Assembly (NCBI GenBank): GCA_965178125.1
Contig: OZ237763.1
Coordinates: 682,001-746,000 of the forward strand
DNA: 64,000 nt
Source of the DNA: Bilabrum cf. latius
Taxonomy: Eukaryota
Direction of reading: 5' to 3'
Shown: piece after piece, positions 24,966 through 54,474 of the stretch
Layout: each line of letters starts with the position of its first letter
Numbering within the stretch: the first letter of the stretch is position 1
Translations under genes and position numbers: made by a program
The notes under the pieces: model-generated
Seen by the model: only the letters and a program-made list of their open reading frames with translations
Databases searched by the model: none
Told to the model about the DNA's origin: nothing

Positions 24966-26876
24966 ATGCATCCATCCCTACTGACCTAGATTGATGAGCT
25001 GGATCGGCGCTCTCGAGGAGTGTATAAGCGTGCAAGCGTGGATCTGGTGCGCCTTGCTACACTGCTTGGTGCTGCGTGTTCCAGGAGTGATGACAGGAAA
25101 TTGGGCGGCAAGCCGAATCTAGGAGACCGAATATCAGCGATTCGATAGTACATGAAAAAGCTCAGGTTTGGAAGCGAGTTCAGATCCCTTCATGTCGCTT
25201 CCAAACGGCTCCTCACTAGCCTCGACAACCACGACACTTCCAGTACAGCCACCATATGTTGCTCAGAGCACGAAATTGGAGCCACAGAAAGGCACTGGTT
25301 GACTTCATCTATATATGAATACTTGCGCGCATCTGGATATGCTGACTTGTCTGCTATAGCGCTGGAGCGACAGATTGGCAGTACAGCAAGCAGCAGGCCA
25401 CCAGCTGCTGCCATTGGCTCGCGTGGTGCTCATCCATCGGCAGCAACCGACCTAGCATCCATCCATTCTGCAGCTCAAGCAATTGGTAAGGGTCAACCAG
25501 CCTAGGCTCTGCTTTGGATGGAGGCGCACTCGGCCCGGGTGCCTCCAGAGGATCGCTCAATCGTGGAGGTGCAACTGCACGCGATCCGATATATCGCGCT
25601 GCTACGAGGGCAAACCGCGGACGTTCAGGCAAAACCATTTGCACCTTTACAACGCGGTGGGCAGCGACCCGTTGATGAAACTCTCGTGGACTTAGTTCGG
25701 CGCGCGCTGAACGACCGACTTTGGTCGTCGGAGGCTGTCGGACCTCGGCCGCAGCTGGGGCTGAGCGCCGACTCCTTCAGGCACAGTGGAAGTGCAGGCG
25801 GTAATGGAAGCACAGTGGGCTCTGACACACCCGCAGGCGTGCACCACTCGAACGGCTCCGAAGCGATGGAGCCACTGTCCCTGCCCCCCCCTCCCCCCAC
25901 CACTCCCTCTACTCCTGCTGCTCCACATCCGCGCGCTCCTGCCTCAGCCTCAAACGGTCACGGCCCCGGCCTTGGGGCACCTTTCAGCAGCAATGGAGCC
26001 AATGGGGGGTCCCAAGCAGCATCAGGCGGGGCGAAAGTGTCCAACGGTGCGAGGAACGGAACCTCAGGAGCCGCTAGCGCAGTGCCTGCCGCAGCACAAG
26101 CAGCGCACAAGAACGGGTCAATTGCTTCCAGGAGCGGTTCAGGCGGACCAGCACACAACCCGCTGAGCGGATCTGCCTCATCGGATGAACCGGCGTCAAA
26201 GGACCGATCACCGACTCCTCCCGGCCTGGGCACACGCATCGGCCTGGCATCACGCTACTACCGTGCCTACCTGGCGCGCCATGCACGGGGCCCCCAATCG
26301 AAGCTTGTGCGGCGACTGGCGGGCGCGGGGGCCTACGCCGACCGGCTCGAGTCGTCGCCTTACGCTGACTTGTGCTCAGACAGGTTCCTGCGAAGTGCGG
26401 GTGAAGCCTTCCTGGCGAGTGCCAGCCGAGCCCTTGGCTTGTCGCTGGACTCCGAGCTCAGCAGGGTGCTGAGGGCGGGGGCGGCCGTGGAAGAGGCGCT
26501 TCGGCGCGGGGCGGAGGGCCTCGGATGTTCCCCTGGCGCTTCCGTGGAGGGTCTGGTCGCAGGCAAGTCGTCTGAGAGGCCGTGCAGGACGCTCGGGCTG
26601 GAGACTGCTCCCTCACTGCGGGAGGGTGTGGCGGACGGGAGCGCGGAGGTACAGGCGGAGCTTCCCGCCGAGATGGTGACGGTGTCCACGGTCGTGTGTC
26701 CCATCGGGAGGCACGTGTGCTCGAGGGAGGACCCTCCCATGGTGCTCGTGTGCGGGCACGTGGTGTCCAAGGAGACGATGGAGCAGCTGGCGCAGGAGAG
26801 GGCGAGGGGCAGGATTAAGTGCCCCGTGTGCATGCAGGTGGGGCGGACCTAGGATGTGATCGAAATGATGTTTTGA
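24966..26876 (+). CDS. RMND5: RMND5/GID2-like RING subunit of the CTLH/GID E3 ligase (~636 aa)
   Basis: One frame from ATG 24966 to TGA 26874 with TAG at 24987, 25146, 25503 and 26850. LisH-like IYEYLRASGY segment. C-terminal degenerate RING: VVCPIGR...DPPMVLVCGHVVSK...IKCPVC. Confidence 0.8.
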
Positions 26877-27031: not shown

Positions 27032-30000
27032 ATGGCCCGATCTACCAGGTCAAGATCTACAAAGACAGGGGATCCAAGCGATGGGGTTTCAACTGATATC
27101 AAGGTGCGATAAGAGGTTCCAACGGACGCCAATGAATCCTTGCGATACCCAAACGAAATCGGAGCCTACGACTGCTTTTTGAACGTTTTGTCGCAGCTTG
27201 GAGACAGAATCATTGCTGGTCGAGGGAAGGCTGCGAAAGTAGGAGTGGCGCGGTTCGTTGGTCTCGTTGACGTGAGATACTATCCAGCCCGTCGAGTTGA
27301 TTGCTTCAAAAGAAGGCTGATTGATCGCGTGCAATTTTCAGACCAAATGCAGGTTTTTCTGCGCGTGCACCTGATCTAGCGCAGTTTGCGAGCGGCGAGT
27401 GGGTTGGAATTGAGCTGGATGCTCCTGAGGGCAAGCACAACGGCACGCACAAGGGCGTCCAGTACTTCAAGTGCAAAGACAAGCACGGAGTGATGGCCCG
27501 AAAGACTCTTTGTAGAATATATCGCGGCAGCGGCTCGGACGGCGCAGGCGCAGGCGAGCAGGGTGGCGCGGCAACGGCCACGCCTGCCCGCCGCACACGG
27601 AGCGCGGTCAAGTCCACGCCCGCCTCTGCCGCCGCTGCCGAGTCCACCCCGGCCCGCCGCACCTCGTCTCGCACCCGCTCTGGGTCTGGCTCCCGCGCCT
27701 CGGCCCCGCCCAGCGCCGCCCCACCCAGCAGTGGCCGCAGCACGGGAGGGGCCACCGGGTCTCGCACCCGCACCCGCACCGCATCGCGCACCGCCCGAGG
27801 CGCCGGCGCGGACGCTCTCGCAGACGCGGCGGACCCGGGGTCCTCCGCCAAGCCCAACGTAAAGACAGTCGATGCAGCGGGTCCAGCCGCGGGGGGGATC
27901 GCAGCACGCACCCGCCGGACGAGAACTTCCTTGGGAGGCGCCGGCGGCGGTGCATCCACGGCGGCAGCAGCGTCGGCTCCTGCGCCTGCCGCCAGCGAGC
28001 CCCCGCCCCCGGCGGCCCCGCCAGCGGAGGGAGGCACCCCTTCCCGCAGCGGCAGGCTGGCAGAGCTCCGCGCCAAGCGAAGCGAGGCCAAAGCGTCGCT
28101 CAGCGCAAGGCAGGGAGGAGGAAGAGGAGGTGGCTCCTCTGGCGGTGAGGGGCCAGCGGCCGCCGCTGGCCGGCGTAGGCGTCGTAGGTCGGGGTCAGGG
28201 AGTACGGCCGGGTCGCCCGGCAGCGAAGTGGATGGAGATGGGGCTGACCTGGATGGCGACGGCAGCGAGGAGGATGAGGAGGGGGGGGCGGGTGAGTCGA
28301 GGGGGGCCTCGTCGGGTGCCAGAGGGCGCGGGAGGTCTGGGTCCAGGAGTGGCAGCGCGAGGCGAGCGCTGGACGGCGGCGGGGCGGGGGAACAAGGGAA
28401 GGAGAAAGAAGAGGAAATCGAGCGGTTGAAGAAGCAGCTGCACGACCTGGGGGCCGAGCTTGAGGCGCTGGAGGGGGCCAAGCGCGAAGAGGCCAGCAAG
28501 AACCAGGAGCTTGAGAAAGAGCTGGCAGAGGCAAAGGAACTGGCCAAGAAGGCGCTGGAAGACGCAGCGAAGTTTGAAGAGGATGCCAAGGAGGCTGAGG
28601 AGGAGGTGGAGGCCAAGCGAGAGGAGCTCAAGGAGGCCACCGATCTCGCGGGAGAGGTGCTGGCCGAGAAAGAGGCTGCCGACGAGGAGGTGGAGCGGCT
28701 GACGGCCAGGCTCAAGGTAGCCGAGGAGGCGGCGCAGGCACGCAGGGAGGAAGGGGGGGACCCGGGCGGGGACACCACCAAGTCGGCGTCACCGGACGGG
28801 GGCGGCACGTCAGCCGCGGCGCTTGCGGCGGCCCAGGGCGAGATGGAGGTGCTCCGTGCACAGATGGACCGCCTGAAGGTGGAGCTCAAGGAGGGGAGGG
28901 AAGAGGCGGAGCAGGCCAGGATGCAGGTGGAGGCGCAGGAGGCAGCGGCGAAGGAGGCAGAGAAGCAGGCAGAGGCTCTGGCCCAGGAGCTGGAGGAGGC
29001 GCGGGCCCAGGCCAAGAGGGCCGAGGACCAGGCCAAGAGGGCAGGCGAAGAGGCCCAGGCGGCGAGGGCCAGCGCGGAGGAGGAGGCAGAGGCGAGGCAG
29101 GCGGCAGAGGGCAAGGCAAAGCGAGCCGCCGCGGGAAGGGAGGCGGCGGAGGCGGCCGCGGAGGAAGCCAAGGCGAGGGCCCGGGAGCTCGAAGCAAAGC
29201 ACGCCTCCGGGGAGGAGAGCGATGCGGCTGCGGAAGCGGAAGCGGAGGCTAGTCGCCGCGTGGAGGAGGGTCGCTTGCGCCGGGAGCTGCAGCAGGCCAG
29301 GGAACAAATGGACGCCCTGGAGGAGCAGTGCGAGGCCGCGGTGCTCGGCAAGGAAGAGGCGGAGAACGAGCGGGACACCATGGAGGAGCAGAAGCTGGAG
29401 CTGGAGATCGAGATGGAAGGAGTCAAGGATGAGCTTGAGGCTGCCAGGGCCTAGGCGTAGGAGGCGAGGGCGGCGGCGGCGGCGGCTGCTGCTGCTGCCA
29501 ACGCCGGGTCTGGTGCGTCGGCAGGTCGCGTGGCGCCGGGCACGCCCTCCGGTGCCGGCCCACGAGGGGCCACAGCCGGCCCCTCGACCCCGGCCACGCC
29601 CGCCGCGCCGGCCTCCGGACAGGCCCTGTTCAGCCCGGCTGCCAAGACTCCCGACTCCATGGCGGCGCAGAACGCGCGCCTGCGGATGGCACTGCAGCGG
29701 CTCCGTGACCAGAGCCGAGAGGACGTGCAGGCACTCCGTGAGAAGCTCAAGGCGGCGAGGGAGCGCGCGGACGAGGTAGAGGCCGCGGAGGCAGAGGCGC
29801 AGGAGCTGAGGGCGGCACTAGAGGAGGCACAGGCGGACCTGGCTGAGGCCAAGGAGACGGCGGACGCGGGGTCTGCGTGGGAGGAGATGCTGGAGAAGAT
29901 GACGGCCCGCGGGATGGAGCTTAGGGAACAGCTGGACGAGGCCAGGGCAGAGGTGCAGGAGCTGGAGGAGCTGGTGCAGGTGGGAGACGAGTTGTATGCC

Positions 30001-33000
30001 GAGCAGGAGGAGACCGAGCGGCGCATGCAGAAGCAGCTGCGAGCGGCCAAGACGCGGCTCCTCGAGCTGCAGAAGGCGAGGACCAGCGAACAGGAGGAGG
30101 CACGTCGGGCCAGGGAACAGGAGAGCAAGCTAGGGGCGGCGCTAAGGGCAAGCCAGAGGGAAACTGCCAGGGCCAACGCGGCGCTGCGGGCGGCCACTGC
30201 AACAGGGGCCGCGGGAAGGAACCACGCAGCGGCCGCCGCCGGGCAGGCCGAGGCCGCCGCCCGCAGGCGGGCCCGATTGGCCGCGGCGCTGGCTCGCACC
30301 CGTGCCGCTCTCGTGCTGGAGCAGAGCCGGTCTGCACGCAAGGACGCCGCCGCAGGCGCCGCCTTTGCGCTTGTTCCCCGCGCCGTGTGGGCACCCTTCT
30401 CCGATGTCTCCCAGGCAGTGGCGCTGTCCCTGTCCGCGGGTCGGCTGCTCCGAGGGGTTCTCGAAGTGGGGGCCAGGGCGGGCCGAGGGGCGGCCCTTGT
30501 AGCAGCGGCTCTAGCGAGGGAAATGGAGGGGGTGCTGTCAGCTGGCGCGAGCTCCTCACGGTCGGCCTCCTCATCCACCTCCACCAGGCGGCGCACGCGC
30601 GCCGCGCGTGCGAGGGCCCTTAGGGGGAGAGGGAGTCAGTAGGCCGGCTCTGGCAGCGGGGAGGAGGGCCAGGCGCTTGCGCTTGCGCTGATGGAGTCAG
30701 CGGGCCCGCGGCTGCTGGAGTGGGGCGAAGAGTCGGGGTGCGGGGCCGGGACGGGAGAGAGCGCGATCGGGATACAGGAGTGCGAGGCCGCGTGCATCAG
30801 GGCTGGAGACCTCGCGGGGGCGCGGGCGGCTGCGGCAGGGTGTGCGCGGTCGGTCTGGCTGGTGCACTGCATGCTGGTGGGGGTGCATAGCGTCGGCGCC
30901 GGAGCGGGTGCCGGGTCTCGCGCGGGAAGGGGTGGTCTTGGGGAAGACTCTGACGAAGAAGAGGGAGAGGAGGTTGAGGATCCGCGGGCGGTGGATACCG
31001 GGGCCTCGGGCGGCAGGCAGCAGAGGAAGGACAGGGCGATACGGCGGGCCTGGGGTCTCGCAGTGGAGGCGGCGCTGGGAGGGTTTGCAGGTGTGCACCA
31101 GCGGCTGGGTGGGGCGGCGCAGCAGCAGCTGTTGGATGCCGCCGATGGGGAGGAGAGGGAGAGGGTGCTGGCTCGGTCCGTGGGCCACGTGCTGGCGGTC
31201 AGGGCGGGGCCGGTGCTGGGTCGGATGGTGCAGGCGCTCGAGTCGTCGCTGCAGTGGGCCGAGGGCACGGGTGATGCTGCGGCTGCGGCTGCGTTGGACT
31301 CGACTGCGCACCAGCAAGGTGCTTCAGCGGGCAGCAGTGACGGTGGCAGCCACACGAACACCGACATCCGGCCCGGCTCGCTGCTGGCCCTTGCGTGGGG
31401 CAGGGAGGAGAAAGCTCCAGGAGATGGCAGCGGCTCGGGGGCAGCGGGGGCCGGCGCTTCTGGGTCGGACCCGGTGCGTGCCGCAGTGCAGTGCAGCCGC
31501 GAACTCGACGCTCTGCTGACGGAGGGGCACCGGGCCAGGGGGCGGGACGGGGCCTGCGTCGGGCTGGGGACTTCGCTAGGCCCCCAGGACAGGGGCAGAG
31601 AGGAGGAAAAAGACGGGGAGAGTGATGGCGATGGCGGAATCGACGCTTAGGCCAGGCGGCAGGCGGAAGCCCAGCTCCGGGGCTGGCTGCAGGGACGGCA
31701 CGATGACGGCCCCGCGTCTCCCCGCGTGGAGCTGCTGAGGGCCTGGGAGCTGGAAGAAAAGGTGCTGGCAGCGGCGGAGGCGGGGGTGGCGGGGGCCCTG
31801 CGCGGCGCCGCGAGACTCCTCGGCGATGCGGAACTTCAGCTCGGGGGACTGTAGGCCGGGACTGGCGCGGGTGCGCTGGGGCAGTCGGAGGTTGCCGGCG
31901 CGGGCGATAGCGGCAGCGGTGAGGAGGACGAGGACGAGGACGGGGAGAATGGGGAGGGCAAGGGCAGTGATAAGGCAGCAGCTTCGGACGGAAAGGACGC
32001 ATCGCAACTGCAAGTCAGGGTGCAGGCACTCGCAAACGCGCTTCGTCGAGCAGGGTCGGTTAGGGAGGCGGCTACAGGGCTGGGGAACATCGCGGTGACT
32101 CGCGGGAAGGGGGCCCTGTCCGTGGGCACCGCACCCAGCGGTCAGGGCGCCGTGCAAGGGGCCGCAGATGGCGGGGTCGTGCTCCTGCGTGACGCCTGCG
32201 ACCTCCTGTGGGCGCACGGCGCGGCTGTTCCCTCGGCCGGTCTGCTGCAAGCGGGCGAGGAGGGGCAGAGAGGAGCGGCGCATGCGTCGGGCGCGGGGCC
32301 TGCCTTGGAGGCAGGCACCAAGTCTGCCCTGCTGTTTCTGCGCTGCAGTGCGCTGCACCCTAGCGCGGTGTCGGGTGCTCTCGATGCAGCGGTGGCAGCC
32401 GCACAGGCCTGGGCCTCTGGCGCGGGCGCGGGGCCATCGGACGTCAGCAGCAGCGAGGGCTTCGCTGCACTGGGTTCAGGTGGGCGGGGCGTAGCTGTCG
32501 ACGACGAGGAGGAGCAGGAGGTTGGAGCAGGGGCGAACTCCGAGTCGACCGACGAGGTGGAGAGCGCGCTGGCCTCAGCCTGTTCCGCAATGCGCGGCGC
32601 CCAACTGACGAGCGAGCCCGTCGGCACGGCATCTGAGAGGGACGGGGCAGGAGCAGAGGCAGCATCTAGCCATTCAGGAGGAGGAAGAGGCGATGAGCAT
32701 GCCGCCGCATGCCAGACAAGAGGAGACCCCCTGGATCCGGAAGGGCCTCTCTTAGCCCAAGGGGGGCACGGAGATGATGCCGAGGATCCGGAGTCGGAGC
32801 AGGGGGCCGCGGGAGAGCGCTGCGACACATTGAAGGGGGTGCTGGGCTCGCAGCGGGCCGCTGTCGCCGCCGCTGCCCAGACCGCGCGGCAGCTGTCCAC
32901 CGCGCGGGAGCTGGCCGCCGAGCTGAGCCACGACCTGAACCGCCGCCAGCGGGAGCTGCACGAGCTCCGGGCGCGGCAGAGCATCCTGGAGGCTAGATCC

Positions 33001-33912
33001 AAGGAGGCGCTGGCGGCGGGCGCCAGGGCGGACGGGGCGGAGAGGGCTTTGGTGGCGGCCAGGGAACAACTGCTGCGGCTGGAGGCCACGAGCGGGCAGT
33101 CGATGGAGCTGCTGCGCGGGGAGGTGGCTCGGCTGGGGCTGGAGCGGGAGCGGCTGAGGGGCCTGCTGCGGCAGGCGAACCTGGAGCACTTGCTCGTCGG
33201 GGAGGGCGAGCACGGCGAGGATGGGGCCGGCCAGGATGCGGGGGGCGATGCTGGGGCCAAGCAGCTGCAGCTGCAGCAGGCTCTGGCTGGCGCTGCGGGA
33301 GCTGCCGCGGGGGCCGCAGGCGGGGGGTCGGGCGGGGCGAGCGCGCATGCTGCCCTCGTTGCGGTCCGTGAGGCCAGGGCACAGGCATCAGCGCAGGCGA
33401 GCCGGTCTCTTGCCCTGGGGCTCGCGATGCTGCCTGCCCTCCCGCCCATCGTGACGGGCGCGGGGAGGGTGGTGGAGGCCTCTGCTGCGGGTCTGTGCGA
33501 TGCGGTGGGGGGGGAGGCCTGGGGGCCGGGAGACAGGGCCGCAAGCCTCCCCTCGGTGGGGATGCGGTTGGACGGGGGGACGTCAGCGAGGTCGGCTGGG
33601 GAGGGAGAGAGCAAGAAGGATGAGGACGAGGAGGAGGATTAGTTCAGGGGGTCGTCGTGGAGGGGCCACCGCACGTGGGTGCGTGGGAGAGCAAAGGCGC
33701 TCAGGAGGCAGTGCGACCAGGCGTACGAGCAGTTGCTTCTGCAGCGGGTCGCAAGCGCCAAGGTGCTCGCGGTTCGCGGCAAGGGGGAGGGTGCCGTCGG
33801 GAGCGAAGGCCAGCAGCTGGCTGCAGCGCAGCTGGCCCAGCTAAGGGCAGCCCGGCGTGCGAGGGCCCTGCAGGATCGAGCGAGCGCACTCCTCCGGACC
33901 GTCCGGGCGTGA
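27032..33912 (+). CDS. DCTN1: Dynactin subunit 1 (p150Glued)-like, ~2,224 aa; exons 27032-27103, 27197-27271, 27385-33912
   Basis: CAP-Gly domain (LGDRI...RFVGLVD/FASGEWVGIELDAPEGKHNG...YFKC), a basic Ser/Arg/Thr region and a long coiled coil. p150-like segments: QNARLRMALQRLRD and EEMLEKMTARGMEL...ELEELVQVGDEL. In-frame TAG at 29452, 29458, 30640, 31648, 31852 and 33640; ends at TGA. Confidence 0.85.
27104..27196 (+). other. Intron 1 of DCTN1-like gene (93 nt)
   Basis: AAG|GTGCGA ... TTTTGTCGCAG|CTT, phase 0; joins ATG 27032 to the CAP-Gly start. Confidence 0.7.
27272..27384 (+). other. Intron 2 of DCTN1-like gene (113 nt)
   Basis: GAC|GTGAGA ... CTGAT..GCGCAG|TTT; removal yields a contiguous CAP-Gly motif. 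Confidence 0.85.
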
Positions 33913-34078
33913 TCGTATGCATAGATTGGTTGGAAATCGCGCGGGAGAGAATAGGTCTGCTGGTCGCTCGTTCCGGTTTGACCGGCGAGGGGCGGGTGGC
34001 GGCCGAGACGCAATTGACAACGTTGGGGCTCGTATTCCGGACTGTGGCTGCAAGCGTATTTCTTGCGAAGACGTCATA

Positions 34079-37000
34079 ATGGCAGCAGGAGGTAGCACGG
34101 CTGATTCTACTACGCCCGTGCCGCCAAGAACGAGTATTTTGACTTCTTCGAAATCTCATGCTCCCATCGCCCACCACCACGCCGTATCTGATACGATGCG
34201 AGTGTGAGAGTACGAAATACGGATTCCATTCGGTTGCATTGGCTGCTTCGTCAGCGCATATGTGCTCCTACTTTCGAACTCTCAATATTGATCTGCATTC
34301 TCGCAGGTTCGAACAGGAGACCGGACCACCTATCCCGATCGAATGGGCTTGTAGAATACTAGAGGTGCAGCAAGCCGGTGAATTTAATCCCTCACTCGCT
34401 GGTCGGGCGGCGAGCAGTATCAGGCATGCGGCGGGGAGCGGGGACATGGAGTTGTGCAAGCCGAGCGCCGTGAGCGGGCTAGGCGTCGCCCTTGACAAGT
34501 GCATGGACGTCTTGCAAACAACAAGCACCTCATGGCCTAGTGGGTCCACGCTGAAAACATGCCCGATCGCGATCGAAGCGTTGCGAACTGCGGCGGGGTC
34601 CGCCGTCCAGCTCTTGAGCGCCATCGGAGAGGTTGGGTGGCATGAGCACCACGAAACGGAAGACGCCATGGTTACATGCGTCAAGCCAGTCGTTCGTGCT
34701 CTCTTTTATGGCCCTACGGCAGTGCACGACGCAGCCCTGTGGGCAATCGGCCACTTCAGCTTCCCGCCAAAGAAGCGGCATTCGTGGAGGAGTGGCCTCG
34801 TGGAGGTGGGCATGACATCGCCTGGCAGCCGAAGTGACTCTATGAACATCGTCAGCGTGCTCACAGCAGCCCTGAGGGACGGTTCCATGGAGAGGAGGAG
34901 GCTGGGTGCCACCGCCATCGCGAATCTCACGTGCTCAAGAAAGGGATTCGATGCCTTTTTGAAGGAAGAGGTGATCAGGCGCCTCATCATGTGCGTGCTC
35001 CCTCCGCACAGCGAGGAATGCGTCGAGCAGGCCTTCCTCTGCATATGGAACATCGCGTCGGGCCGGGGCAAGCCGCGCACCATGACCCACGACGCCGGCG
35101 TGCACAAGCACCTGGCCCCGCTCCTCTTCTCGTCCTTCGGAAGAACGGCGGAGTACGCCTCGGGATACATGCGCTCCCAGTTAGACGCAGGCGGCTTGGC
35201 CCCGGGCGGCGAAAACGAGAAGATCATACACGCAAGGCAGAGAGAACTGCTAGCGGAAAAAGGGCTGCTCGCCGGACTGCTCAGGAACCTGGGGCCCACA
35301 TGGCCCGTGGCAGCCGAAGAGGCCGCAGCGGCCATCTGGAACGTCTGCTACACGCAGCCACACCGCAAGATCGTGGACGCCGGTGCCATACCCCTGCTCA
35401 CAGCCATGGCCAAACGGGTGGACCAGCAGCGCCCCTTCGCCCTGTGCTGCGCCCTTGGTGCGATTGCCGCGCTGCTCAAGATCCCGGACGAGGACGTGGC
35501 GGACCAGGTGGTGAGCACTGGGGGGATTGAGGCGGCCGCCGCGCTGCTGATGCGCCCAAATCAGGAACGAATCCACGAGCAGGCGTGCTCGGTGCTGCTC
35601 GGGGTCTGCAAGGGCCCTGGTCGAGCGTCGAACCGCGCCCACGTGGTTGCGACGAGATGCTTGTCACCGGTGGGCGCGCTGCTGCTGAACGGCAACGCGG
35701 TCGAGAAAAGCGCGGCGGCACGATGCCTGAGGGCGGTGAGTGGGCAGAACCCCACCGAGTGCGACAAGAGCGAAGTGTCCCGTGGTACTGCTCGAGCCAT
35801 CCTGGCAGATCCCGTCGCTACGGCCGTGCTAGTGCAGCTGGGGTCTTCAGGGAGTCGGTCTGCTCTCTCAGAGCACCTGCTCGCGACCTTGTGGTGCTTG
35901 TTCGAGACGGGATGCCCCGAGGTGCGCCGGAGCTTTGTGTCCATCAACGATCATGTGCCGTCAATACTGGCAAAGATCAAGCAGAGCGCCCCCTGGTGCT
36001 ACTTGGGCATGGGCGCCCTCGCGGCGATGCTTGAGAACGAGCGGCTGGAGGAGGAGCAAAGGGGCAGTGCCGCGGCAGCGGGACAGCCGGAGAGAGAGGA
36101 ATCAGCCGCACCCAGTACAACCGCGTGCTTGGATGCAGTGGTGGCAGCGCAGGCACTGGATGTGGTCGACAGGATGCTTCCAGCGTACCGAGACAAACTC
36201 ACAGCGCGGCCCACCATGCCGGTGCAGGGCACACGACTGCTGCTTGAGGTGTGTCTCCGACGGAGGAGCGAGGCATCTACCTTGCACTCGCGACGATCCT
36301 GGTCTTGCGTGGCGGCAATGATCATGAAGTGCTGTAAAACAGGGAATGACAATGACGCTGTGCCGGAGGCATTCGGCCTGCTTCGGCTCGTGTGTGAGCA
36401 GCCCGAGGCCGTGCACGTGGCGATGACTGGAGAGTTTGTCAAATCCATCGAGAGGCTGCTTTAGGATCGCATCTCGCACGGAGAGCCTAATAGTAGGGGA
36501 CGGCTGGCGGTCCTGCATGCGCTCAAAGCGGTACATGCAGTCATGCGGACGCCAGGTGCGGCCCAGGCGTTAGTGTGCAGACCCAGCATGATCCGCGCCG
36601 TGGCAAAGAGCTACAGCCTGTGGCCGTCCGTGGGCCCCATCGCGGTTCTGCAGCGCATGGCCTCTCTGAACGAGGGTGGGAGGCTAGCGGTGTGCACCAC
36701 TGGCGGGCTCAGGGTAGGCACTGCTGCAGTGCGGTTGGGCGTGAATACCCGGGTGAGGCAGGCGGGCGTGCGGCTGCTTCGCAACCTGCTGTCCTCCACT
36801 GCGAACGCGAAGAGAACGGCTCGCCGACTGCGATGGGTGGTTGCCAGCAAGGATGCTTCCAGCGGCACGTTGCGCGGGCTTGGTGACCTCATGTGTGACG
36901 GCAGCATGCAGCAGGCCGGTGATGCAGCACAGTCCCTGCGGCACGTGCTGGCTGTGCTGGTGACCAGAATTGCAGAGAGACCAGCTGGCCGTCTCTTTCA

Positions 37001-37892
37001 GTCGGAAGATAACTTGACAGGACTGGAACGCGGGTAGAAGGAGTTTACCGATGGAAGTCTCGAGTCGGATCAGGCCCAGACTCCCAGCGAGCAAGGGACC
37101 GCAGGGACCACGGGCGACAGCGATGGCGAAGGAGATGGTGAGGCCCGTCAAGGCGATATAGGCTCCCAGTGTTCAGGTGGGGGTCCTGCAGGTGGCACCA
37201 GCTAGGCGCATGTGGCAGCGACTGACGCGGGGGATACATCGGATGCAGCAGCGACTGACGCGGGGGATACATCGGATGCAGCAGCGACTGACGCGAGGGA
37301 TACATCGGATGCAGCAGCGACTGACGCGAGGGATACATCGGATGCAGCAGCGACTGACGCGGGGGATACATCGGATGCAGCAGCGACTGACGCGAGGGAT
37401 ACATCGGATGCAGCAGCGACTGACGCGAGGGATACATCGGATGCAGCAGCGACTGACGCGAGGGATACATCGGATGCAAAGCATGAGGATTCCCACGAAA
37501 TGGAAAGCGGTCGATAGGATCTTGAAGAGACTTCTGGGCCAGACGCCAGCCCGGGTGCAGATGCAAGTGAGGCTTCGGCTGACCCAGACAGTGGGGCAAG
37601 TGCAGCTGGCCCGAGCAGTGGTGCGGGAGCAAGCTCCAGCGCAGCAGCCGCAACTGCCACCGGTAAAATGGAGACCGGCTTTGTACATAAGGACTCAGAA
37701 AAGTTCCTATCCGAGGACCTGGCTCATCAGCTGCGCGCCGGCGTGGACAGAGCCGTGGATCTACGCCTGGTGACGGCAGAGGTCGGCCAGACTATGCGTG
37801 GGTAGATCGATGCATTGGCTGAGGCACCCAGCCCATACAATGAGCCCCAGGCAAGCGACGCCTGGTCTGCGAGCAACGTGACAGAGGAGTAA
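34079..37892 (+). CDS. Armadillo-repeat protein with acidic low-complexity tail (~1,236 aa); probable intron 34204-34306
   Basis: ARM-like helices: AALWAIGHFS, ATAIANLT, AAAAIWNVC, IVDAGAIPLL, GGIEAAAALL. The frame continues through TAG at 36462, 37035, 37203, 37515 and 37803 to TAA 37890. A GTGAGA...TCTCGCAG intron links ATG 34079 in the correct phase. Confidence 0.8.
37215..37478 (+). repeat. Coding minisatellite, 8 x 33 bp (GCAGCGACTGACGCGRGGGATACATCGGATGCA = AATDA[G/R]DTSDA)
   Basis: Contiguous near-identical units with a single G/A variable site, in frame within the ARM gene tail. Confidence 0.95.
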
Positions 37893-37932
37893 AGCAGGCT
37901 GCAGTACACCGGGTGGTTGACGGTTGCAGCTC

Positions 37933-38425
37933 AGTTGGTGAGGCCAGTAATGTCTCTGAGATTGAGGTCGCGCGGTGGGCGCAGGACCCGCTCGAGGTGC
38001 AGGCTCAGATGCGACGTAGTGATGCGAAGGAGAGAGAAAGAGCGACTAGTGATGAAGAGCAGGAGCGGCGGCGACTCGGGGTGGGCGAGGTGGGAGGGCG
38101 GAGCAGAGAGAGAGGGCGAGAGGGGGGGGGGGGGGGGGTTGGGGGCGAAGCAGAGAGGGAGGGGGCGGCAGTTCACCAAGTGGGGATGAAATAGAGGAGG
38201 AAAAGATGATTGGTGGGGTCATCGGGCTGATACGGCGGATTGGAAGGGGGAGGCACAGGCCGGGCAGGTGGAGGTACGGGCATGTGTGTGACGAGTGGCT
38301 TGGATCAGGGGGATCGGATCACCCGACCACATGCGGACGAGGAAGTTGGGAGGTCACAATTGGACTTGAGCGGCAAACATGCCGTGTGCTATTCGGGCGC
38401 TGAGGGGCAGCGCTCGCCAGTTTTT
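37933..38425. repeat. Dispersed ~490-bp repeat 'X', copy 1 (uninterrupted)
   Basis: Colinear similarity to 53138-53250 + 54223-54474 + 56130-56209. Starts AGTTGGTGAGGCCAG, has a purine-rich middle, and ends in the hairpin GCGCTG-AGGGG-CAGCGC followed by GCCAGTTTT. Confidence 0.85.
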
Positions 38426-38669
38426 CCTAATGATAGCAGTTGAGGTGTCCTTGGCAGCATTGCGCGACTTCTGGTAATGGGCTATAACTTTTACCAGATT
38501 GTGGGGGTCGTGTGCCCCAGAATAATACCAAAATACTGGGTAAGGACCACACAAAGTAGATCTATTGTCACTGACTTCTGGGGGGGATCTGATATTTTGT
38601 GGACTCAACTCAAAAGCGCACGCTATCACGAAGAAACATCTGGAACGAGGGCCCGGGACCTACCAGACT

Positions 38670-41600
38670 TCACGCTTCAGCTGCAATGGCCTAAACCACC
38701 TAAGCTCCACCCTGGGGACCCATTTCCCCCTGGGGAGCGTCAGCGTTCACGTTCCCTCCGGCGCCCGCTGCCGGCACCCCGTCCTGCTGCCCGTTCTGAG
38801 CCAACCCTGCCTTGACGTTGGCGATCGCCACGGCGAGGTTGTTGTTTTCGGCTGCCCCTACAGCCAGGCTGGCAAAGTCCTCCCGGACCGCCCTTGCGAG
38901 CGCCCGTTTGGCCTTCGCTGCAGCCCTCCTCGATCCCTTCGAGACAAAATCGAGGATCCTTGAGTGGTCCTGCATGACCCGTGAGTACATAGTGTGGTAC
39001 ACACGCTGTTCCCCGCGCACGTGCTGGTGCTAGGCGGCAACGGAGAGGCGAGCCTTTGCCACAGAAGACCACGAGAGGCGTGCGTTGGCCGGACGAGTCG
39101 AAACCAGCCGCCCTTTGTCCTCCTACCTCTTCTTCCGCAACTTGTCGAGCACCTGCAGGAACTCGACCGACTTCTCCCCGATTCCCCCCAACACGTCCAC
39201 CACAAAGGGTACGACCCGCACGCCACTGCGTACCGCCCCTTTCTGCGTCCTCACGGTCCCAGGACACCACTTGTCTTCTCCTCCGATCCGGACGCCGAGC
39301 GTTCCGAGGTCGACGGGCCTGCCGTAGCTGGCCAGCTTCGTGGCATGCGCGGCCCGCAAAGCAGACCCCTCTTGCCAGTCGCTGCCAATCCTCCACGACG
39401 AGCGGTCCCACCGGTAAGTTGCCGCAGTGGAATCAACCACCGTGACATCGATGAGATAAGCCGTCCCCTCGTGCTCAAAGAACAGATCGCCTCGTGGCAC
39501 GAGCGGACCGCGCCGACCCGGCAGCCGGGCCACTTGGCCCTCTGGCTCCCGGATAGGGCGTCTGCCCGTGGCCTCGCGGACCACCTGCTCGAGCACGTTG
39601 AGCACCCGGAAGTGCCTGCGGCCTGGAAGGCCTCCGCAGACACGCTTGTCCTTGCACGTGGCACCGTGGCGAACTGACTAGATCAGTTCGACTACCTTGC
39701 CCTGCTTCCGGCACCCCGGGCAGATCTGCGTGACGCGCCACGCCTCCCCACATGCACCGTGCGTTGCCCCAAGAGGTTGTGGGGGACAGCTGCACGGCTA
39801 TGGGATGGCGAGACGTTGGCAGAACATGCCCCGGGCATCTTCAGGCTGGACTCGGCTCAGGACAGAGAGCGGCGCATGCAGCCAAGACCCGGCTCCTTGG
39901 GACCTGGCGGCGCGGATTGTGGCTCGCGCCACTCCTGCGTACTCTCTGGTGACTGCATCGACTGGAGCGAGTCTGTCATGCGCAAGCGGAGATGAGGCAT
40001 CCCAGAGGAGCCTCTCCACCTGCACTCGCTCAGCCAGTGCCGTCACATGGCTCTGGTTGTGCCCTCCTGCGGCACCTTCGAGAAAACGAATAACCGCCTG
40101 CGATGCGGTGGGTGCCGGCTGCTCCCCAGCCAGCTGCCTCGTCACCCATGCCCGAAGGTCCTTCACCTCCAGGCGCCAGGGTTCAGTGGCCCCACCGCAC
40201 AGCTCCATACGGGCTGCCTTCTCGGCTGGGCTGCCCAGGAGTTCCGAAGTGTGGGCTGTGTCCCACACCATACCATAGCGTGGGGGGACGTCAGCCTCCG
40301 GAACAAGTGGAAGCAACGGACTCGGGAAACCAGCCATCCCGAAATTGTCTTGCTTCCCCTCTTGTACGAGTCTCCCGTACTTCGAGATTGCGGTCATCAC
40401 AGTGTCCACAAGGGAGTTCAGGCGCGCGGTGCGCCCTCGCAGTGGGTTCAGCAGAGGGGGTGCCTCCCCGGCACCTGCCGCCGCACCTTCCCCGACCTCC
40501 TCCGCCGGGTCCCACTGGTTGAGCGCCACCTGCAGGTGTGGCAGGTTGAAGTCGCGTGCTACCCTCGCCAACCAGGGCCACACATCCAACAACACCCCGA
40601 CGCACATTGCCTCCCGGGTTAAATCGGCAGGCACGAGCCCCACTCCGAGACCCCCACGGGCAACGGATAGCGGACCCAGCACGTCCAACACCTGTCTCTG
40701 GGCCTGCGAGAGAGCGCTTACACGCATCCCTGTCAGGAACTCCAGAAACGCTCCCTACACTTCCTTCAAATGGGGTGTCACCCCGTCCTTGAGCTCGGGC
40801 AAGAGGCACCCGCTCCTGTGCACGTGCGTCCACGCCGGCACTACGCACCGGGCAAACAGTGCGCGCGCACTGATTGGGTCCAGGTAGGCCAGGCGAAAAG
40901 CCTGAACCACCGTCTCTTCCAAGCGTCCCTTCAAGACTTGTTCGGCCACTCCGACTTCGGTCCCTACCGGGACGCCCAGGATCCTCAGCCCATGCTCGTG
41001 GACCACTCCTTCGAGCCTATCCTCCTGGTCTGGCGCCAATAGGTGGACCAGGCGCTAATAGGTGGCTCGGGAGGGGGAGAAGAACGACGTTTTCTTCTAG
41101 TTGAGGGAGAGGCCGACGTCCCCCAACTTCCCCTCCAACGTGGCGATGGCTGCCCTGACATTATCGAGCTCCCCCAACAGGAACACGTCGTCAAGGTACG
41201 CTACTAGGTACACATCCATGTGGGCAATCTTTGTCGCTTTCAGAGCGCCCTAAATGGCTGAGCAGAACAGCGCTGGAGACAAAGGCGACCCCTACAGCAC
41301 CCCCTCCAGGTTCTGCACAAGCTCTGTTCCATCCTCGCCAGACACAACACCATGTACTGCGTGCTGCAGACACTGGTGTACGTAAGTGCCCAGTCCGGTG
41401 GACAGCGACGCCAAAGCTTGCAAGGTCGCCTTCCGATGGATGGAGCCATATGCATCCGAGGCATCCAGCGCAGCGACCACCCACTCAGGGTTAGCCCCGA
41501 GAAGAACCTGGATCGTTGCAATGGCTCCGTCCATCCCGCACTTGAGCCCCGCCCCCATCTGGTGTGGGGCGCAAGCTCGCTACACCTTCGGCAGCAATTC

Positions 41601-43022
41601 GGGCCGAAGGGCTCGGCTCACAAATGTATGCCACTGAGGCTGGATTGCGATGACCCTGAACTCCGAGCCCCCCTCCCCTTTCGGGATTGGGACCCCGCGA
41701 AACAGGCCCAGGCACGCGAATAGGCACGGCGGCAGGGCTCCCTCAACCATGGACTAGCAGAAGGCATGGAAGTCGTCATAAAGCCGCTTCACATCTGCTC
41801 CCTCCCCGGTCAGCAAGGTTTTCAGCACCTCTCTCGTCACACCAAAAGCATCTGGCGCCTTGAGTCGCAGGGCCTTCTAGACCTCCTCCCCTAGTCTAGC
41901 CCCCGGCAGCTCCACCACATGCTCGCGCGCGTCTCCTCCAGTTCCCCCTCGTCGGCCTCTTCGCACCGGGCGTGTCCAGCGGAACCTGGGGATCGGCTGG
42001 GACCTCTTGGTGCGAAACTTCCCCTAAACCTTCGCCTGCATTTCGGCTGCCGTGCCCCTAGCGTGGGGCCTAGCAGCCAACCGCGACATGGCCTTACGGT
42101 AGTCCCCGATCGACAAAAACCGGAGGCAACTGCGTACTGCCTTGCGCGATGGGGGGGAAGGAAGTCCCTTGCCACTGACGCTGGAAAGGATACCCCCCAA
42201 CTTCTCCACAATCCTCCCGCGGGCTGCGAGAGACTCGGGATCATCAGATGGGGAGCTCCCACTCTTTCGGTCTACCACGGCTCCACCAGCTATGGCTTCC
42301 TACTCAGCGGCAGCTTCGCGCGGGACACGAGAATCCGACGGCCGGCGACACAGCAAAACAAACACTTTCAGCTTATGTAAAGCCTACAGCGTGAGCTTCT
42401 CCTCCAGTTCTTTGCCTTTACCAGAATCGTTGGTCCAGGCGGAGGATACATTCATAGTCTCCTTCAGGAAGAGAGAAAGGGCGGCTCGCGCCTCCTTTTT
42501 CTAATCTAAATTCAAACTACGAAGCGCTGTCTCGCGTTCGGGCCAGAACGCACACTCAAGGATCAGCTTGCGAACGTCGTCGGGCAGTGGCACTGCCTCC
42601 AACTCAGCCGCCTAATGCTCCGCAGGAACCCCCGCTCCGGCCCCGCCGGCAACTTGTGGGACTGCATGTGGAACATTTGCTTCACCCTGATCTGCATCTT
42701 CTTCAGCTGCGGCGACTGCGGCATTATCTGCCCCCGGCGCCGCCTCAGCAACCACGATTGCTGCACCTCCGACCGCCGCCTCACCCACAGGCTAGGGAGG
42801 CTAAGCGTGACCGAAGTGCTAGCGTCCAATGACTCCGTCGGAATCAGAATCATTGGAATCGGGGGGGTTGGGGACTCCTGGTCCGGTCTAAGCGGCGCTG
42901 GCAGCACCGTCAGAATCCAAGGCGAATCTTTGCGCGACTCCCACACCCATTCTGGGCATCTTACCCTTACCGGCAACACGCCCTGAACGTAGGACGATCT
43001 GACCCCCCCCGGGGTCATCCAT
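38670..43022 (-). mobile_element. Intact single-ORF non-LTR retrotransposon with RT, CCHC zinc knuckle and restriction-like endonuclease (CRE-clade-like), ~1,450 aa
   Basis: One frame from ATG 43022 to TGA 38670 with about 23 TAGs and no TAA/TGA. RT motifs: PIPK..FRVIAI, PHQMGAG, LDASDAYGSI, GVL*GSPLSPALF, YLDD (41187-41198), GLSLN*KKT, GLRILGVPVG, GGLG, GAGSWL. CPGC..HGATC knuckle. RLE motifs: RRH, REP, RGDL, IDVTVV, KLASY, PFVVDVLGG. Element ends not resolved. Confidence 0.9.
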
Positions 43023-43172: not shown

Positions 43173-44997
43173 ATGGAGTTGGTGAATCTTCTCAAGGCCA
43201 AAGGCTTTGATGAGGTTGTCAGCAATCACAGAGACAAACTAGATGAACTGCTGAGATACGCTCCAGTGAGCTGCCATTGCATTCATTCAGTACCTTTCTT
43301 TTGTGTCCCCAAATTCCTAGCATCCATTGGTCTCCAGTATTTCACCGCAGTCAACGATCCTGTTTTTGCGTGGCAAAGACCTGCCTCTTTCATACTGGGA
43401 AGTCTGCCGAGAGGCAGGAGTTGACTTCACGCACATGGTGAACCCGAATTGCAAGAGTATTCTAGCATTTGATGATGAAGCTCTGCACGCTGGTATCTGC
43501 TTTGAATCGAATTCTTTCTGCATGCAGGCTGTGAGACGGAGCATGGAATCCTGGCTGCGTGGTGCCGAAGATTCTGTCTTTGAATCGGTACTTGGCCTGC
43601 TGTACAGCTGGGGGATCCCACCGGTGAGAGTTTATAGCATATGTTTGTGCAATTGAATGTTAAGAATGCCACCACTCCCATCTTGTAACCCGTTGATGTG
43701 CGACACCGCAGGTGATGTACAGCATGGGCCGAGCGGTGGGCGTGGCGCTGCAAATCCGTCATGGGCTTAACCTTTGCAAGAGGGTGAGTTAGGGGAGTAT
43801 TGTTTCATGCTTGCGGTGTGTTTTGACATATTAAATAACTAAGCACATATTTCTGGGATGCAAGGCGAACGAACCATACTTCTTGAGCGCAGACTGACAG
43901 AGTGGTCCGAAACTGTCGTTCACCAGGCAAGAAAACAGATGCCCCCGAGGTTTGCAGATTGCTGCTCGATGCTGGGGTTCCACTGGACAACAGCGTAAGA
44001 GCATCGCATGGCATGCGCTGTGTTTGTCAGTTACAATGGATGACATGCTTTTGCTGCACGTGCGCTGCGCCTCTTTCCCTACCTGCTCTATCACAGCACA
44101 ATCCCTTCGATTGCCCTTTGCTGGAAATTCCATCGTGTAAACCGCCAATTGAAGGCGCAATATTGCGCACCTTGCTTTCCAGAGGGGCAGATCCAGACTG
44201 CTATGTGGCTGAGAAGACCAAAGCGTACGCTCCATCGGCATTTGACGGCAAGATACCGCTGTTGCTCAAGCACGGCATGTCGGCGGACCGGATAGATAAA
44301 GTGAGAATCAAGGTACACAAGTAGTATGTACCGCATGAATTGTTGAGCCATTAGTGGAATGCTGATATTATGCTTGCCATCACTTGATTCCAACGATCCT
44401 GTTCCCTCCCAGTCTGGCCTCTCGCTGGTGGTCCTGACCCAGATCTATAAAGACATCAGCGGACTCATGCACCTTCTGCAAGCCGGTGCTAGATTGGACT
44501 TTGTGTCGGATGATGGGACTTCTATTGAGCATTTGCTGCAGGAGCCGCCAGGCAATCTCAAGTTATTGAGCTACCGGTACAGGCCTTCCTTTGTGCTAGC
44601 ACTGCTGCCATCAGCACGCGGCAACCCCCAGCGGCTTCTCCGGCTCATCATCGACCACCTCAAGGCCACAGGGGATCGTAAGACACTACGGGAAGGACCT
44701 CCAGATCCGCGCGATAGGAGATGGGCGGTGGTGGGCTGGCGGTAGGGAATGGAGGCGCACAGGGATGCAGCGCTGGTGTTTAAAGCAGCGAGCGAGGGGA
44801 GGCCTCTGGAACTGGCCAAGCGTCTGCGATTAGGCAAGCTGGCTGGCGGGCATCATCGGAAGGGTTATTTGCTGGCGGGTGATTCGGGTGATAATGGTGA
44901 GTGTGTGACAGCTTTGGAAGCGGCTGTACGGGGTGGGCACGTTGAGTGCGAGGCATTGCTGAAGGATCAGGGCGCGGATTTGGGCACGTAGCGTTGA
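43173..44997 (+). CDS. Multi-exon ankyrin-repeat protein (exon structure only partly resolved)
   Basis: Ankyrin-like segments: VCRLLLDAGV, LRTLLSRGADPD, LLLKHGMSAD, LLQAGARLD, TALEAAVRGGHVECEALLKDQGADL. Several GTGAG donors. The last exon reads through TAG 44743 and 44989 to TGA 44995. Confidence 0.6.
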
Positions 44998-45451: not shown

Positions 45452-47851
45452 TCAGAGCATGACAAACTTGTGAAACGTCGCTGAGGAGGGTGCGAGCACC
45501 AACTGCCATTTCTACTTCTCGTTCTGCACGAACAGGCCAGCCATTGGAAGACGAGTCACCACTTTGCCGATCACCTCAAATGCAGACATCGGATTATAGC
45601 ATTTGCCATGATCCTGGTCCAAGGTTGCAGCCTCGTCTTCGGCGCCAACATTGGGATCCTCGTCAGCCACCATTTTAAGAATTTCCCCGTCCTGCAGCTA
45701 TTTTAACGCAGACGCGTCATCTTCTAAAGCACGGATGGCTGCAATGACCGCCCGGAAGTTCTCGTCACTAACAGTCTATACCAGGTCGACGGTAAACGAT
45801 ACGTCTTCAAAGCTTGCGGCTTGCAGCCTCTTGCAGGCAGCCATCACGCCTGCCTCGCTGCGCGTCTTGTCGGTCGACTCCCCTGCGAAGAACTCGTCTA
45901 GTCCACGCAGCGAGTCGGGGGGCTTGAGACTAAAGATGTGCTTGAAGGCCTTCAGGCCGGCGAATCTAATCCACTTATGCATCTCCTTCTCGAGGCCGTA
46001 CATGCTGACGTGGATGCCAGGGACACCGAATTGAGTTTCATCAGGGTGAGCGAGCTGGCAGGACTGGAACGTCTCCGGATCCGTCCGTGCATCTGAGTCT
46101 TCTTCGCCAGTTCCTGCTCCACTAGCTGCTGCTGGACCTGCGGCTGACCCTGACCCTTCTCCTCGTGCTGGTGCTGCTGCTGGACCTGCGGCTGACCCTG
46201 ACCCTTCTCCTCGTGCTGGTGCTGCTGCTGGACCTGCGTCTGACCCTGACCCTTCTCCTCGTGCTGGTGCTGGTGCTGGTGCTGGTGCTGGTGCTGGTGC
46301 TGGTGCTGGTGCTGGTGCTGGTACTGGTACTGGTACTGGTGCTGGCGCTGATTCAGACCGTTTCTCCGGTTCTGCTGCGTCTCCGGTAGCCTCTTCATCT
46401 GCACCTTTTCCCTCGCTCTGTTTTGATTTTTTGGATTCCGCGGGTCCCGCGATATCACCGCCAGTCTTGTCCGCCCCAGCAGACCCCCCGGCGTCGCTAC
46501 CAGGTCCATCCGGTGCTACGGCGCGTTTCCCTTCCTTGTCCTGGTGGTGCCAGTCCTCATCAAGTCCTGAGTATTGCAATCCGAGTTTTTGGCACTTGCT
46601 CACGCCAGGAGGCGGTATGTCTGCCTACTTGCTCGCTCGTCCAGACCTACCCATCTTCTTAGGAGCTCTGCCACAGCCCTCTGCCGCTGGAGTCAATGAA
46701 TTGGCGAACTTGTTCCATCGCTGCCCAACCTTTCCACCGCAGTTTGGCACGATCGAGGCCCGCACAAGAACCTGCACAGTCTTGACGTGCTGTACGAAGA
46801 TCTGGGACTGGTCAGATTTCGGCAGTTTTCCAAGGGCTTCTGGAAATCCCCCATGCGTGCTGCAGTACTGCTCTAGGCTCAGGTTGGCGAGGGAGCAAAT
46901 CTCCGTGTGCCGCCGTGAGAAAATGGTTGCAACCAGCTGCCGAATCAGGTCCACGTCACCCTCCACGGCGCACTGTCTGCTTGTGAACTGAAGGTCCGGC
47001 ACCTGCGATCCATCGACTGCAATTTCTCGGCGGCTCGAATCGACTGACCTTCCTCCTACACTGTCAGCGTCGCTTGCACCTCCTGCCGCCGCCCCGTCGC
47101 TGCTCGAATCGACTCCTTGCCTCGTACTGGCAGTCTCAATGACTGGGAAAATATCCCTTTTCACGCCCTTCACAGACACTGGATTTGCATCGACGAGTAC
47201 AACCTCAGTTGCTGCGATACAGAAATCGAAACTTGGCTTCTGAGGTGCGATGCAAGGCATGGCAACAACGAGCGACCATCAGCCGGTTGCTCGTCGGACT
47301 CTTCAATTGACGATACTAGTGGAGCGACATGCGGTGCATATCAGGATGGCTAGAAATACTTCAATCTCACACGGTAATCTGGTCCTCCAGGCGAACTGTC
47401 GGAGCGGGGCCGGCACGTCGCACTTAAAGTCCCAGCGCTGGCGACTGTGACTGCTCCTCCAAGCGCCTCGAAACTCTAGAGTATCCCTAAAGTAGCCTGC
47501 CTTGATGAACTGCATGGGCCCTATCTCGACTACATACGTGTACAATCCTTCAAGCACCAGGTTGAACGCGTAAGCTGGTCTGGTATCTTTTGCGGGGCGA
47601 TGCAGGTAAGGGCACCCGCTGTGTCCCTCGCGGGCCCTTCCCCAGGCCGCAACTTGCTCGAATGCCATAGCATCTGAGCTAGATGAAGCATTGTGAGCAT
47701 TTGTTGCAGGGCATTGCTCTTGGTCGCCCGATATAACCCCCCTGAGGCGTGAACTTGCCGCCTTCCCACCAGCGGCGCGTGCCTGGCTGCCAAGCAAAAG
47801 ATCTCCCTCGTTCTCCCGTATGATGGGAACCCCTTGGCATATCGGGAGCAC
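45452..47851 (-). CDS. Hypothetical protein with Pro/Ala-rich linker; 5' end and one intron (~47241-47350) unresolved
   Basis: ORFs 47303-47851, 46625-47260 and 45776-46603 share a frame. TAGs at 46625, 45776 and further downstream are read through to TGA 45452. Two TGAs near 47279-47305 fall in a probable intron ending ...GCACCTCAG. Confidence 0.55.
46126..46346 (-). repeat. Coding repeats: ~3 x 48 bp (PARGEGSGSAAGPAAA) plus a (GCTGGT)n hexamer run (poly-PA/PV)
   Basis: Directly visible tandem units. Confidence 0.9.
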
Positions 47852-48497: not shown

Positions 48498-49697
48498 TCA
48501 CCTGCCCTCCACACCACCCACCATCTCATACCCGGCAGGCACTGGCCCCAGACAGGCCGGCCTCTCCCACACCGACCTGTCCGTCCTCGCGTTGTAGTAG
48601 AACAGGTGCTCCTCCTCGTCTTCGTGCGCGCTCCACATGCTAGCGTCCTGCTCGGGGTCATACGGGGCCTCCTCACCACTGGATCTAGATCTAGCGGGGT
48701 GGTGTGACGAGTGATGTGCGCTGCCGTTCGATGCACCCTGGATCGCGTGCTCCAGCACGAGGCGGTCGGACCGGCCGGGGACACCACCGTGCGATGCACA
48801 TACCACAGATGAAGATGCGTCTATTGCGGAAGCCCCCGCCCGACCTGCCACATCCCCACCAGCCGTAGCACTCGTCACACCGTACCCCGCCCTCCTCTCG
48901 GCCGCCTCCTGCAGCCGCTTGGCCTCTCGCTCCTGCGCCTGCACCCGCTCCCTGGCGGCGTGCAGCTCCGTGGCGACCGGCATCGCGTGCCTCCTGAACG
49001 CCTCACTCGTCACACGGAGCACGGCCAGCTGCCATCCCTCGTACTGGCAGTCGAGGTCCACTGGTTCGTCCCACTGGGTCTTGCCCGTGTGACGATTGTG
49101 GTAGTACAGCAGGCCTGTGGAGCTCGACTGGTGGATAGACCACGCGGGAGGAGAAGAAGCAGCTGGACCTGGACCAGGAGCCGAGGAAGCCTGCATGCTT
49201 GATGCTGCTGCTGCTGCTATATCTAGTGAGACGCCGGCGGATGCACCTTGGGACGCCTGCTTTGAGTCATCCGTCCCTTCACTCGTCACACCGCGCTGCT
49301 GCTTGAGCCCCTGTCCGATACCACTCGTCACACCCAGCCCGCGGCCAGACTCGGAGCGCGAAAGAGACGAAGACGAGGACGAGGCTGATCGCCCGGCCTG
49401 GGCCAGTAACGGCTTAGTCCCAGGGGTCGATGCACTCGTCACACGGCTAAAGCGACTGCCGCCGCCGCTCGACCTGCCCGTGCCCGACCCGCTATTACTC
49501 GTCACACCGCCGCTCCCCCGCACGGCCTCGGCGAGGGGCGAGTAGACGCAGGGGCCCTGCGGCATGCGCCTGCCACTCGTCACACCGCCGCCCCCGATGC
49601 TCCGGCTGCTTCCGGTGCGCGGCAGCACCATATCCGGATGGGCCGCACTCGTCACACCAACGGGCGCGCTATGCTGCTGCTGCTGCTGCTGCTGCTA
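48498..49697 (-). CDS. Protein with two WW domains; 5' end not found
   Basis: PPAWSIHQSSSTGLLYYHNRHTGKTQWDEP and MWSAHEDEEEHLFYYNARTDRSVWERP; ends at TGA 48498. The frame extends upstream into a (CAG)7 run with no nearby ATG. Confidence 0.75.
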
Positions 49698-54222: not shown

Positions 54223-54474
54223 TGCGAGAGAGAGAGAGAGAGAGAGAGGGCAGCTAGGGGGGGGAGGGTAGAGCAAAGGGAGGGGGGGACGACGGTTCAC
54301 CGGAACGGGGGAGGAAATGGTGGAAGAGAAGATGATCGGTGGGGTCATTGGGTTGATGAGACGGATAGGAAGGGGGAGGCACAGGCCGGGCAGGTGTGGG
54401 TTGGGCATGTGTGACGAGTGACTCGGATCAGGGGGATCGGATCACCGACCACATGCGGATGTGGAAGTTGAGAG

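Follow-up and report, generated by a model that had tools for sequence, protein, structure and literature searches.

Evidence That UAA Remains a Stop Codon Where UAG Is Read as Glutamine in a GC-Rich, Intron-Bearing Eukaryotic Genome

Introduction

Nuclear genetic codes that give UAG and UAA different meanings are rare and have been described in a handful of lineages (McGowan et al., 2024; PMC11687900). The closest described system is that of Iotanema spirale (Fornicata), in which UAG encodes glutamine while UAA still terminates translation (Panek et al., 2017; PMC5304391); in the parts of that paper drawn on here, both the UAG-reading tRNA and the accompanying eRF1 changes are given as predictions only. 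UAG alone is likewise read as glutamine in two phyllopharyngean ciliates, Hartmannula sinica and Trochilia petrani, and in Protocruzia tuzeti (McGowan et al., 2024; PMC11687900). In other lineages UAG encodes a different amino acid: leucine in the rhizarian exLh and in phyllopharyngean MAGs from TARA, and serine in Scotinosphaera (PMC5304391, PMC11687900). Code 6, in which both UAR codons are glutamine, is used by many ciliates and by Hexamita, Streblomastix, Ulvophyceae and Amoeboaphelidium (PMC11687900).

We describe here a 64-kb stretch of DNA (“the window”) in which UAA very probably stays a stop, decoupled from a UAG that is read as glutamine, the code of translation table 15. The arrangement is the same as that described for Iotanema spirale, with UAG alone passing to glutamine and both UAA and UGA terminating, and it differs in two ways: the primary terminator of I. 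spirale is UAA (PMC5304391), whereas TGA stands at 10 of the 11 gene ends scored here, fitting the 62% GC of the window; and the I. spirale case, as presented in that source, is transcriptome-based, whereas ours is built on genomic DNA with confirmed introns. Compared with the UAG-only ciliates, for which the source gives UAG shares of 18.5% and 31.8% of glutamine codons (PMC11687900), the share here is about 13%, and in our judgement the DNA is unlike that of a ciliate macronuclear genome: it is GC-rich, has GTGAR introns of 85–160 nt, and carries giant cadherin/FG-GAP genes and a high-copy retroelement. Code 6 organisms share UAG as glutamine but also read UAA as glutamine (PMC11687900); here, TAA is found at 0 of 17,049 in-frame codons and ends a gene. 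Finally, exLh, the TARA MAGs and Scotinosphaera also decouple UAG from UAA (PMC5304391, PMC11687900) but with another amino acid, whereas in the window both the aligned positions and the CAG repeats point to glutamine. We found no description in the literature of a GC-rich eukaryote with a UAG-only glutamine code, although an earlier publication is possible.

Results

Gene content of the window

The G+C content is 62% across the 64-kb window. Its protein set is eukaryotic and its genes carry GT-AG junctions; the window is therefore nuclear DNA of a eukaryote with introns. Among the junctions listed, six are found in contigs of X5–X7 (coded sequencing runs, none of them on record as RNA) and are absent from the genomic run X1; the confirmed introns are 85–160 nt long, and all six of those listed start with GTGAR. 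Long frames cover the window, and they are open solely when TAG is read as sense: the longest frame then grows from 991 to 5,716 codons, whereas it stays at 991 codons if TAA alone is made sense.

The genes and the individual codons discussed below are collected in Table 1. Two giant genes, one with cadherin domains and one with FG-GAP repeats, form a tandem pair on the minus strand (1–24691). The 2,139-codon coiled-coil gene (27493–33912), to which Pfam gives no match, reaches a GC content of 72% with a strong purine skew, and both strands show numerous spurious long frames across it. A spliced X5 contig spans from the 3′ end of this gene into the ARM gene (33611–34203, plus strand); either the 5′ leader of the ARM gene overlaps the end of the coiled-coil gene, or both transcripts overlap. 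An ankyrin identity considered for the spliced gene at 43.2–45.0 kb was dropped, being without Pfam support. Within the 64-kb window ARAGORN found no tRNA genes, Rfam gave no matches, and there was neither an eRF1 gene nor a marker gene for placing the organism; an Atlas search likewise yielded no usable taxonomic placement.

Table 1. Genes, exons, termini and individual TAG codons of the 64-kb window, with positions counted from its first letter.
Feature	Position	Strand	Detail
Giant adhesion-type gene	within 1–24691	−	cadherin and ephrin-receptor-like domains; >2,334 codons; runs off window
Giant FG-GAP-repeat gene	TGA 7547–7549	−	5,714 codons; C-terminal membrane segments; 42 in-frame TAG, 0 TAA
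RMND5A-like CTLH/RING gene	TGA 26874–26876	+	
TAG 8 codons ahead of RMND5A-like TGA	26850–26852	+	Q in P0005
Coiled-coil/low-complexity gene	27493–33912, TGA 33910–33912	+	2,139 codons
ARM exon 1	34079–34203	+	ATG at 34079; spliced X5 contig joins 34203 to 34307
ARM intron	34204–34306	+	103 nt, GTGAGA...CAG; X5 record 11
ARM exon 2, coding	34307–37889	+	5 in-frame TAG, no TAA/TGA
In-frame TAG, ARM codon 1216	37803–37805	+	Q in relatives P0006, P0034
ARM terminator TAA	37890–37892	+	in frame; followed by A (TAAA)
Would-be readthrough tail	37893–38189	+	99 codons, to next in-frame TGA (38187)
Repeat-bearing sequence downstream of RT frame	37933–38669	−	repeat families D3–D5
Retroelement frame, RVT_1	38670–43022, TGA 38670–38672	−	1,450 codons; 23 TAG, 0 TAA
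TAG at −7 and −10 of RT frame	38691–38693, 38700–38702	−	
TAG at RT motif LxGSPLSP	41292–41294	−	window L-TAG-GSPLSP; Q in 4/4 homologues
Spliced gene at 43.2–45.0 kb	TGA 44995–44997	+	
TAG two codons upstream of TGA, spliced gene at 43.2–45.0 kb	44989–44991	+	
Gene G7	TGA 45452–45454	−	
WW-domain gene	TGA 48498–48500	−	
FG-GAP/integrin-like gene G9	TGA 52559–52561	+	
Amino-acid permease gene	TGA 56386–56388	−	
TAG in amino-acid permease exon 1, discordant	58250–58252	−	F in 4/4 distant homologues
Gene G12	TGA 58954–58956	−	
TAG within GGG-CAG repeat	59329–59331	−	GGG TAG GGG CAG GGG CAG GGA CAG

TAA is absent from the reading frames

Across 11 frames (17,049 codons, about 51 kb), TAG occurs in frame 99 times and neither TAA nor TGA occurs at all; TAA is thus shut out of the frames as fully as TGA. 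The two other frames of the same DNA hold 227 TAG, 75 TAA and 609 TGA, so that the density of TAG is alike in and out of frame (99 versus about 113 per off-frame). At least one TAG is present in 9 of the 11 counted frames, and TAG is found as well in the spliced gene at 43.2–45.0 kb and in exon 1 of the permease gene. The zero count for TAA is not circular, since frames bounded by TGA only still show TAA at their margins alone: the 11 frames then take in five TAA codons, four of them upstream of the first ATG (one in G1, two in the RT gene and one in G9) and the fifth being the terminator of the ARM gene.

Base composition lowers the number of TAA codons to be expected, A-ending codons being under-used in the window (A:G ratios of 0.12–0.28), and the expectation remains well above zero by every measure applied. 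The off-frame density calls for 37.5 TAA in frame; applying the CAA:CAG ratio of 0.229 to the 99 TAG gives 22.7; and the lowest A:G ratio (0.116) gives 11.5, for which the probability of seeing none is about 1e-5 or less. The original prediction had reported no TAA inside the frames that it traced (more than 40 kb of coding sequence), and had named in-frame TAA at conserved glutamine positions (ordinary code 6) and genes terminating at TAG beforehand as findings that would speak against it: no TAA was found in the 17,049 codons of the 11 frames, and no gene of the window needs a TAG stop. Its central proposal, that UAG has been reassigned while UAA is kept out of the frames and ends one gene, is supported.

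TAG is read on balance as glutamine

The comparisons available suggest that, on balance, TAG encodes glutamine. Glutamine is the aligned residue at three of the four informative TAG positions, namely the RT motif (for which the homologue search gave four matches, all weak) and two orthologue comparisons. The RMND5A-like gene product is 78% identical over 458 aa to protein P0005 of a close relative, the single match of that search, which has glutamine at TAG633; in the ARM protein, the context of TAG1216 is MRGxIDALAEA in the window and MRGQIDALAEA in both P0006 and P0034. Two further TAG codons are associated with CAG repeats, one of them interspersed in a GGG-CAG repeat and another heading a CAG run. 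The sole informative position at odds with glutamine is the TAG of permease exon 1 (context LAFIAFxAVTGGPFG), which aligns to Phe in all four weak matches that the search returned, distant homologues of 37–47% identity. TAG makes up about 13% of the glutamine codons of the window. The spliced X5 contig (record 11) shows no differences from the genomic sequence over 34307–37260, a region that includes the ARM TAG codons at 36462 and 37035, and its identity over these two codons indicates that TAG is not edited away.

The ARM gene ends in TAA

The joined exons of the ARM gene translate from MAAGGSTADS, and the protein matches Pfam Arm (E 1.7e-07). That this gene ends in TAA, as the original prediction had stated, is borne out: the codon at 37890–37892 is in frame and closes the ARM frame. 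The relatives' proteins P0006 and P0034, which come from two different contigs and are 85% identical to the ARM protein, end ...ASDAWSASNVTEE where the window has TAA, although their gene calls assumed the standard code, and their own stop at that point could even be TAG. In a representative search with the ARM C-terminus there were 28 matches, 27 of which were left out as matching the low-complexity repeat region only. Metagenome scans with the ARM C-terminal half and with a 22-mer of the retroelement gave no match.

The 99-codon tail that readthrough of the TAA would add is judged to be non-coding. It is Arg-rich and holds a G run, and from 37933, 40 nt past the TAA, the sequence is a repeat that blastn finds in common with 53138–53247; the TAA itself precedes the repeat boundary and sits in unique sequence. 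The codon score is 0.285 over the final 99 codons of the ARM gene, 0.39 over its final 28 and −0.008 over the 99 codons past the TAA. This score tells coding and non-coding sequence apart weakly, with values between −0.003 and 0.357 across windows of the ARM gene, and is taken as supporting evidence only. A weak donor-like GTAAAG overlaps the TAA; all six confirmed introns among those listed begin with GTGAR. An A directly after TAA would make for a strong termination context. TAA as an active terminator is seen at one gene of 11 ends, yet that end is well supported.

Two other features of this region were observed. Inside the ARM gene (37174–37536, plus strand) lie some 8–10 tandem units of 33 nt that encode AATDA(G/R)DTSDA, at which contigs break, and past the gene (38116–38139, plus strand) a run of about 20 G stands in purine-rich, repeat-bearing sequence.

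TGA ends most genes as composition predicts

The 11 scorable gene ends of the window comprise 10 TGA and one TAA. UGA, which is found at none of the 17,049 in-frame codons, thus ends 10 of 11 genes, and it does so because the genome is GC-rich: the off-frame ratio of TGA to TAA (609:75) predicts 9.8 TGA and 1.2 TAA among 11 ends where 10 and one are seen, and the probability of at most one TAA is 0.66. The original prediction had put the other ends at “eleven or so,” all of them TGA; all the other scored ends are indeed TGA, but they number 10, and the “strong TGA preference” that it read into them is nothing special, given that composition predicts 1.2 TAA and one is seen.

The RMND5A-like protein ends flush both with P0005 of the relative and with human RMND5A. 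A TGA at 51966–51968 was considered as the end of G9 and rejected as an artefact, coding going on in another frame: past 51968 there follow an FG-GAP motif, a membrane helix and a tail before the terminator given in Table 1. The reading frame of G9 changes at 51870–51890 (plus strand), with no GTGAR donor nearby; the switch reflects an indel in the assembly or else an intron that went unrecognised.

TAG codons close to gene 3′ ends

Genes hold more TAG than expected in their last 10 codons, four being seen against 0.58 expected (Poisson P = 0.003, a post hoc test on a small sample). A fifth near-terminal TAG, at 51960, was discarded as an artefact of the G9 gene model. The TAG ahead of the RMND5A-like TGA is, by alignment, a sense codon: the tail of the protein aligns collinearly to the human RMND5A C-terminus, with five residues to spare on each side of the alignment, and the codon is glutamine in P0005. 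The other three (at 44989, 38691 and 38700) could be due to chance, could be fossil amber terminators past which translation now continues as far as the next TGA, or could reflect residual termination, and the excess leaves room for some TAG still serving as stops. The +4 base after TAG shows no difference from that after CAG (p = 0.24).

A high-copy retroelement carries the most TAG

TAG makes up 1.6% of the codons of the retroelement frame, the top density in the window, and the frame has no internal TGA. The repeat-bearing sequence at 37933–38669 is probably the 3′ part of the same element; by blastn, pieces of it recur at 53138–53247, 54231–54474 and 56130–56209. Summed X1 contig depth is at least 2,431 in 37933–38669 and at least 5,294 near the 3′ end of the element, against about 50 for the ARM gene. 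The retroelement is high-copy, and it has adopted the changed code of its host.

Discussion

The reading that we consider very probable, with UAA a stop and UAG glutamine, has to be weighed against three others. Were this ordinary code 6, both UAA and UAG would be glutamine, TAA would be scarce merely through GC bias, and the ARM protein would be longer by 99 codons. A GC-rich genome with A-ending codons under-used is indeed what is seen, and the ARM frame does stay open for 99 codons past the TAA; but the same bias still calls for 11.5–22.7 TAA beside 99 TAG, where none is seen (P about 1e-5 or less), and one frame by itself, that of the RT, combines 23 TAG with no TAA at all. The ARM proteins of two relatives, moreover, stop at the identical residue, and the post-TAA tail scores as non-coding and is mostly repeat common to another locus, all of which leaves code 6 scarcely credible. 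It is also decidedly unlikely that UAA is unassigned or avoided, with UGA the sole working stop and the ARM TAA a recent accident that arose, for example, via repeat insertion. A single TAA among 11 ends, with a repeat beginning 40 nt downstream of it, might suggest as much, but one in 11 fits the 1.2 expected by composition and leaves no avoidance in need of explanation; two relatives, at 85% identity, share the conserved C-terminus of the ARM protein, and the ARM TAA lies upstream of the repeat boundary in unique sequence. Eukaryotic eRF1 reads all three stops, and UAA stops in the UAG-only codes documented in the literature cited (PMC5304391).

The third alternative concerns UAG rather than UAA: the codon might be context-dependent, glutamine inside genes and a stop near some 3′ ends, as in Condylostoma and karyorelicts. 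What speaks for this is the excess of TAG in the last 10 codons (four versus 0.58 expected), including the TAG that stands two codons ahead of the TGA in the spliced gene at 43.2–45.0 kb. The one near-terminal TAG that can be aligned, in the RMND5A-like gene, is nevertheless glutamine in the relative, in a tail collinear with human RMND5A; the +4 base does not differ between TAG and CAG (p = 0.24); no gene in the window needs a TAG stop; the enrichment is both post hoc and small; and the fifth case, at 51960, is a gene-model artefact. We hold a context-dependent UAG to be highly improbable overall, with the TAG excess near gene ends and the TAG at 44989–44991 leaving some room for it.

Under a code in which UAG is decoupled from UAA (NCBI translation table 15), UAG would be an ordinary glutamine codon, with UAA and UGA as the terminators. 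Decoding of UAG would have to be efficient, because a frame of 5,714 codons with 42 TAG is not makeable by leaky readthrough, and the decoder would ignore UAA; it is probably a tRNA-Gln, most simply one with a CUA anticodon. The published decoder argument leads to such a tRNA-Gln(CUA), one mutation away from CUG (PMC5304391, PMC11687900); the original prediction, in proposing a CUA anticodon and an eRF1 that rejects UAG, restates the reasoning standard since Panek et al. (PMC5304391). As an alternative of our own, a putative enhanced near-cognate reading by tRNA-Gln(CUG) might serve the same end. Weakened recognition of UAG by eRF1 is plausible and would be predicted, but it is not obligatory. 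In one UAG-only organism the conserved eRF1 motifs are reported without obvious change, one substitution apart (PMC5304391), and the original prediction that eRF1 “must” reject UAG is thus too strong.

As a tentative possibility, a UAG-only glutamine code may have originated independently in a GC-rich, intron-bearing non-ciliate, with UGA as its main stop, a retroelement that has adopted the code and a TAG excess that perhaps consists of fossil ambers. In practical terms, correct annotation depends on the code, since standard gene callers cut genes at each TAG (as in the truncated P0005, P0006 and P0034). A GC-rich genome for which DNA is at hand, along with relatives at about 80–88% protein identity, would also make it possible to find the tRNA that reads UAG and the changes in eRF1. 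Such a system would show the effect of composition on the choice of terminator after reassignment, and nuclear codes that give UAG and UAA split meanings show that the eukaryotic termination machinery is able to separate the two codons.
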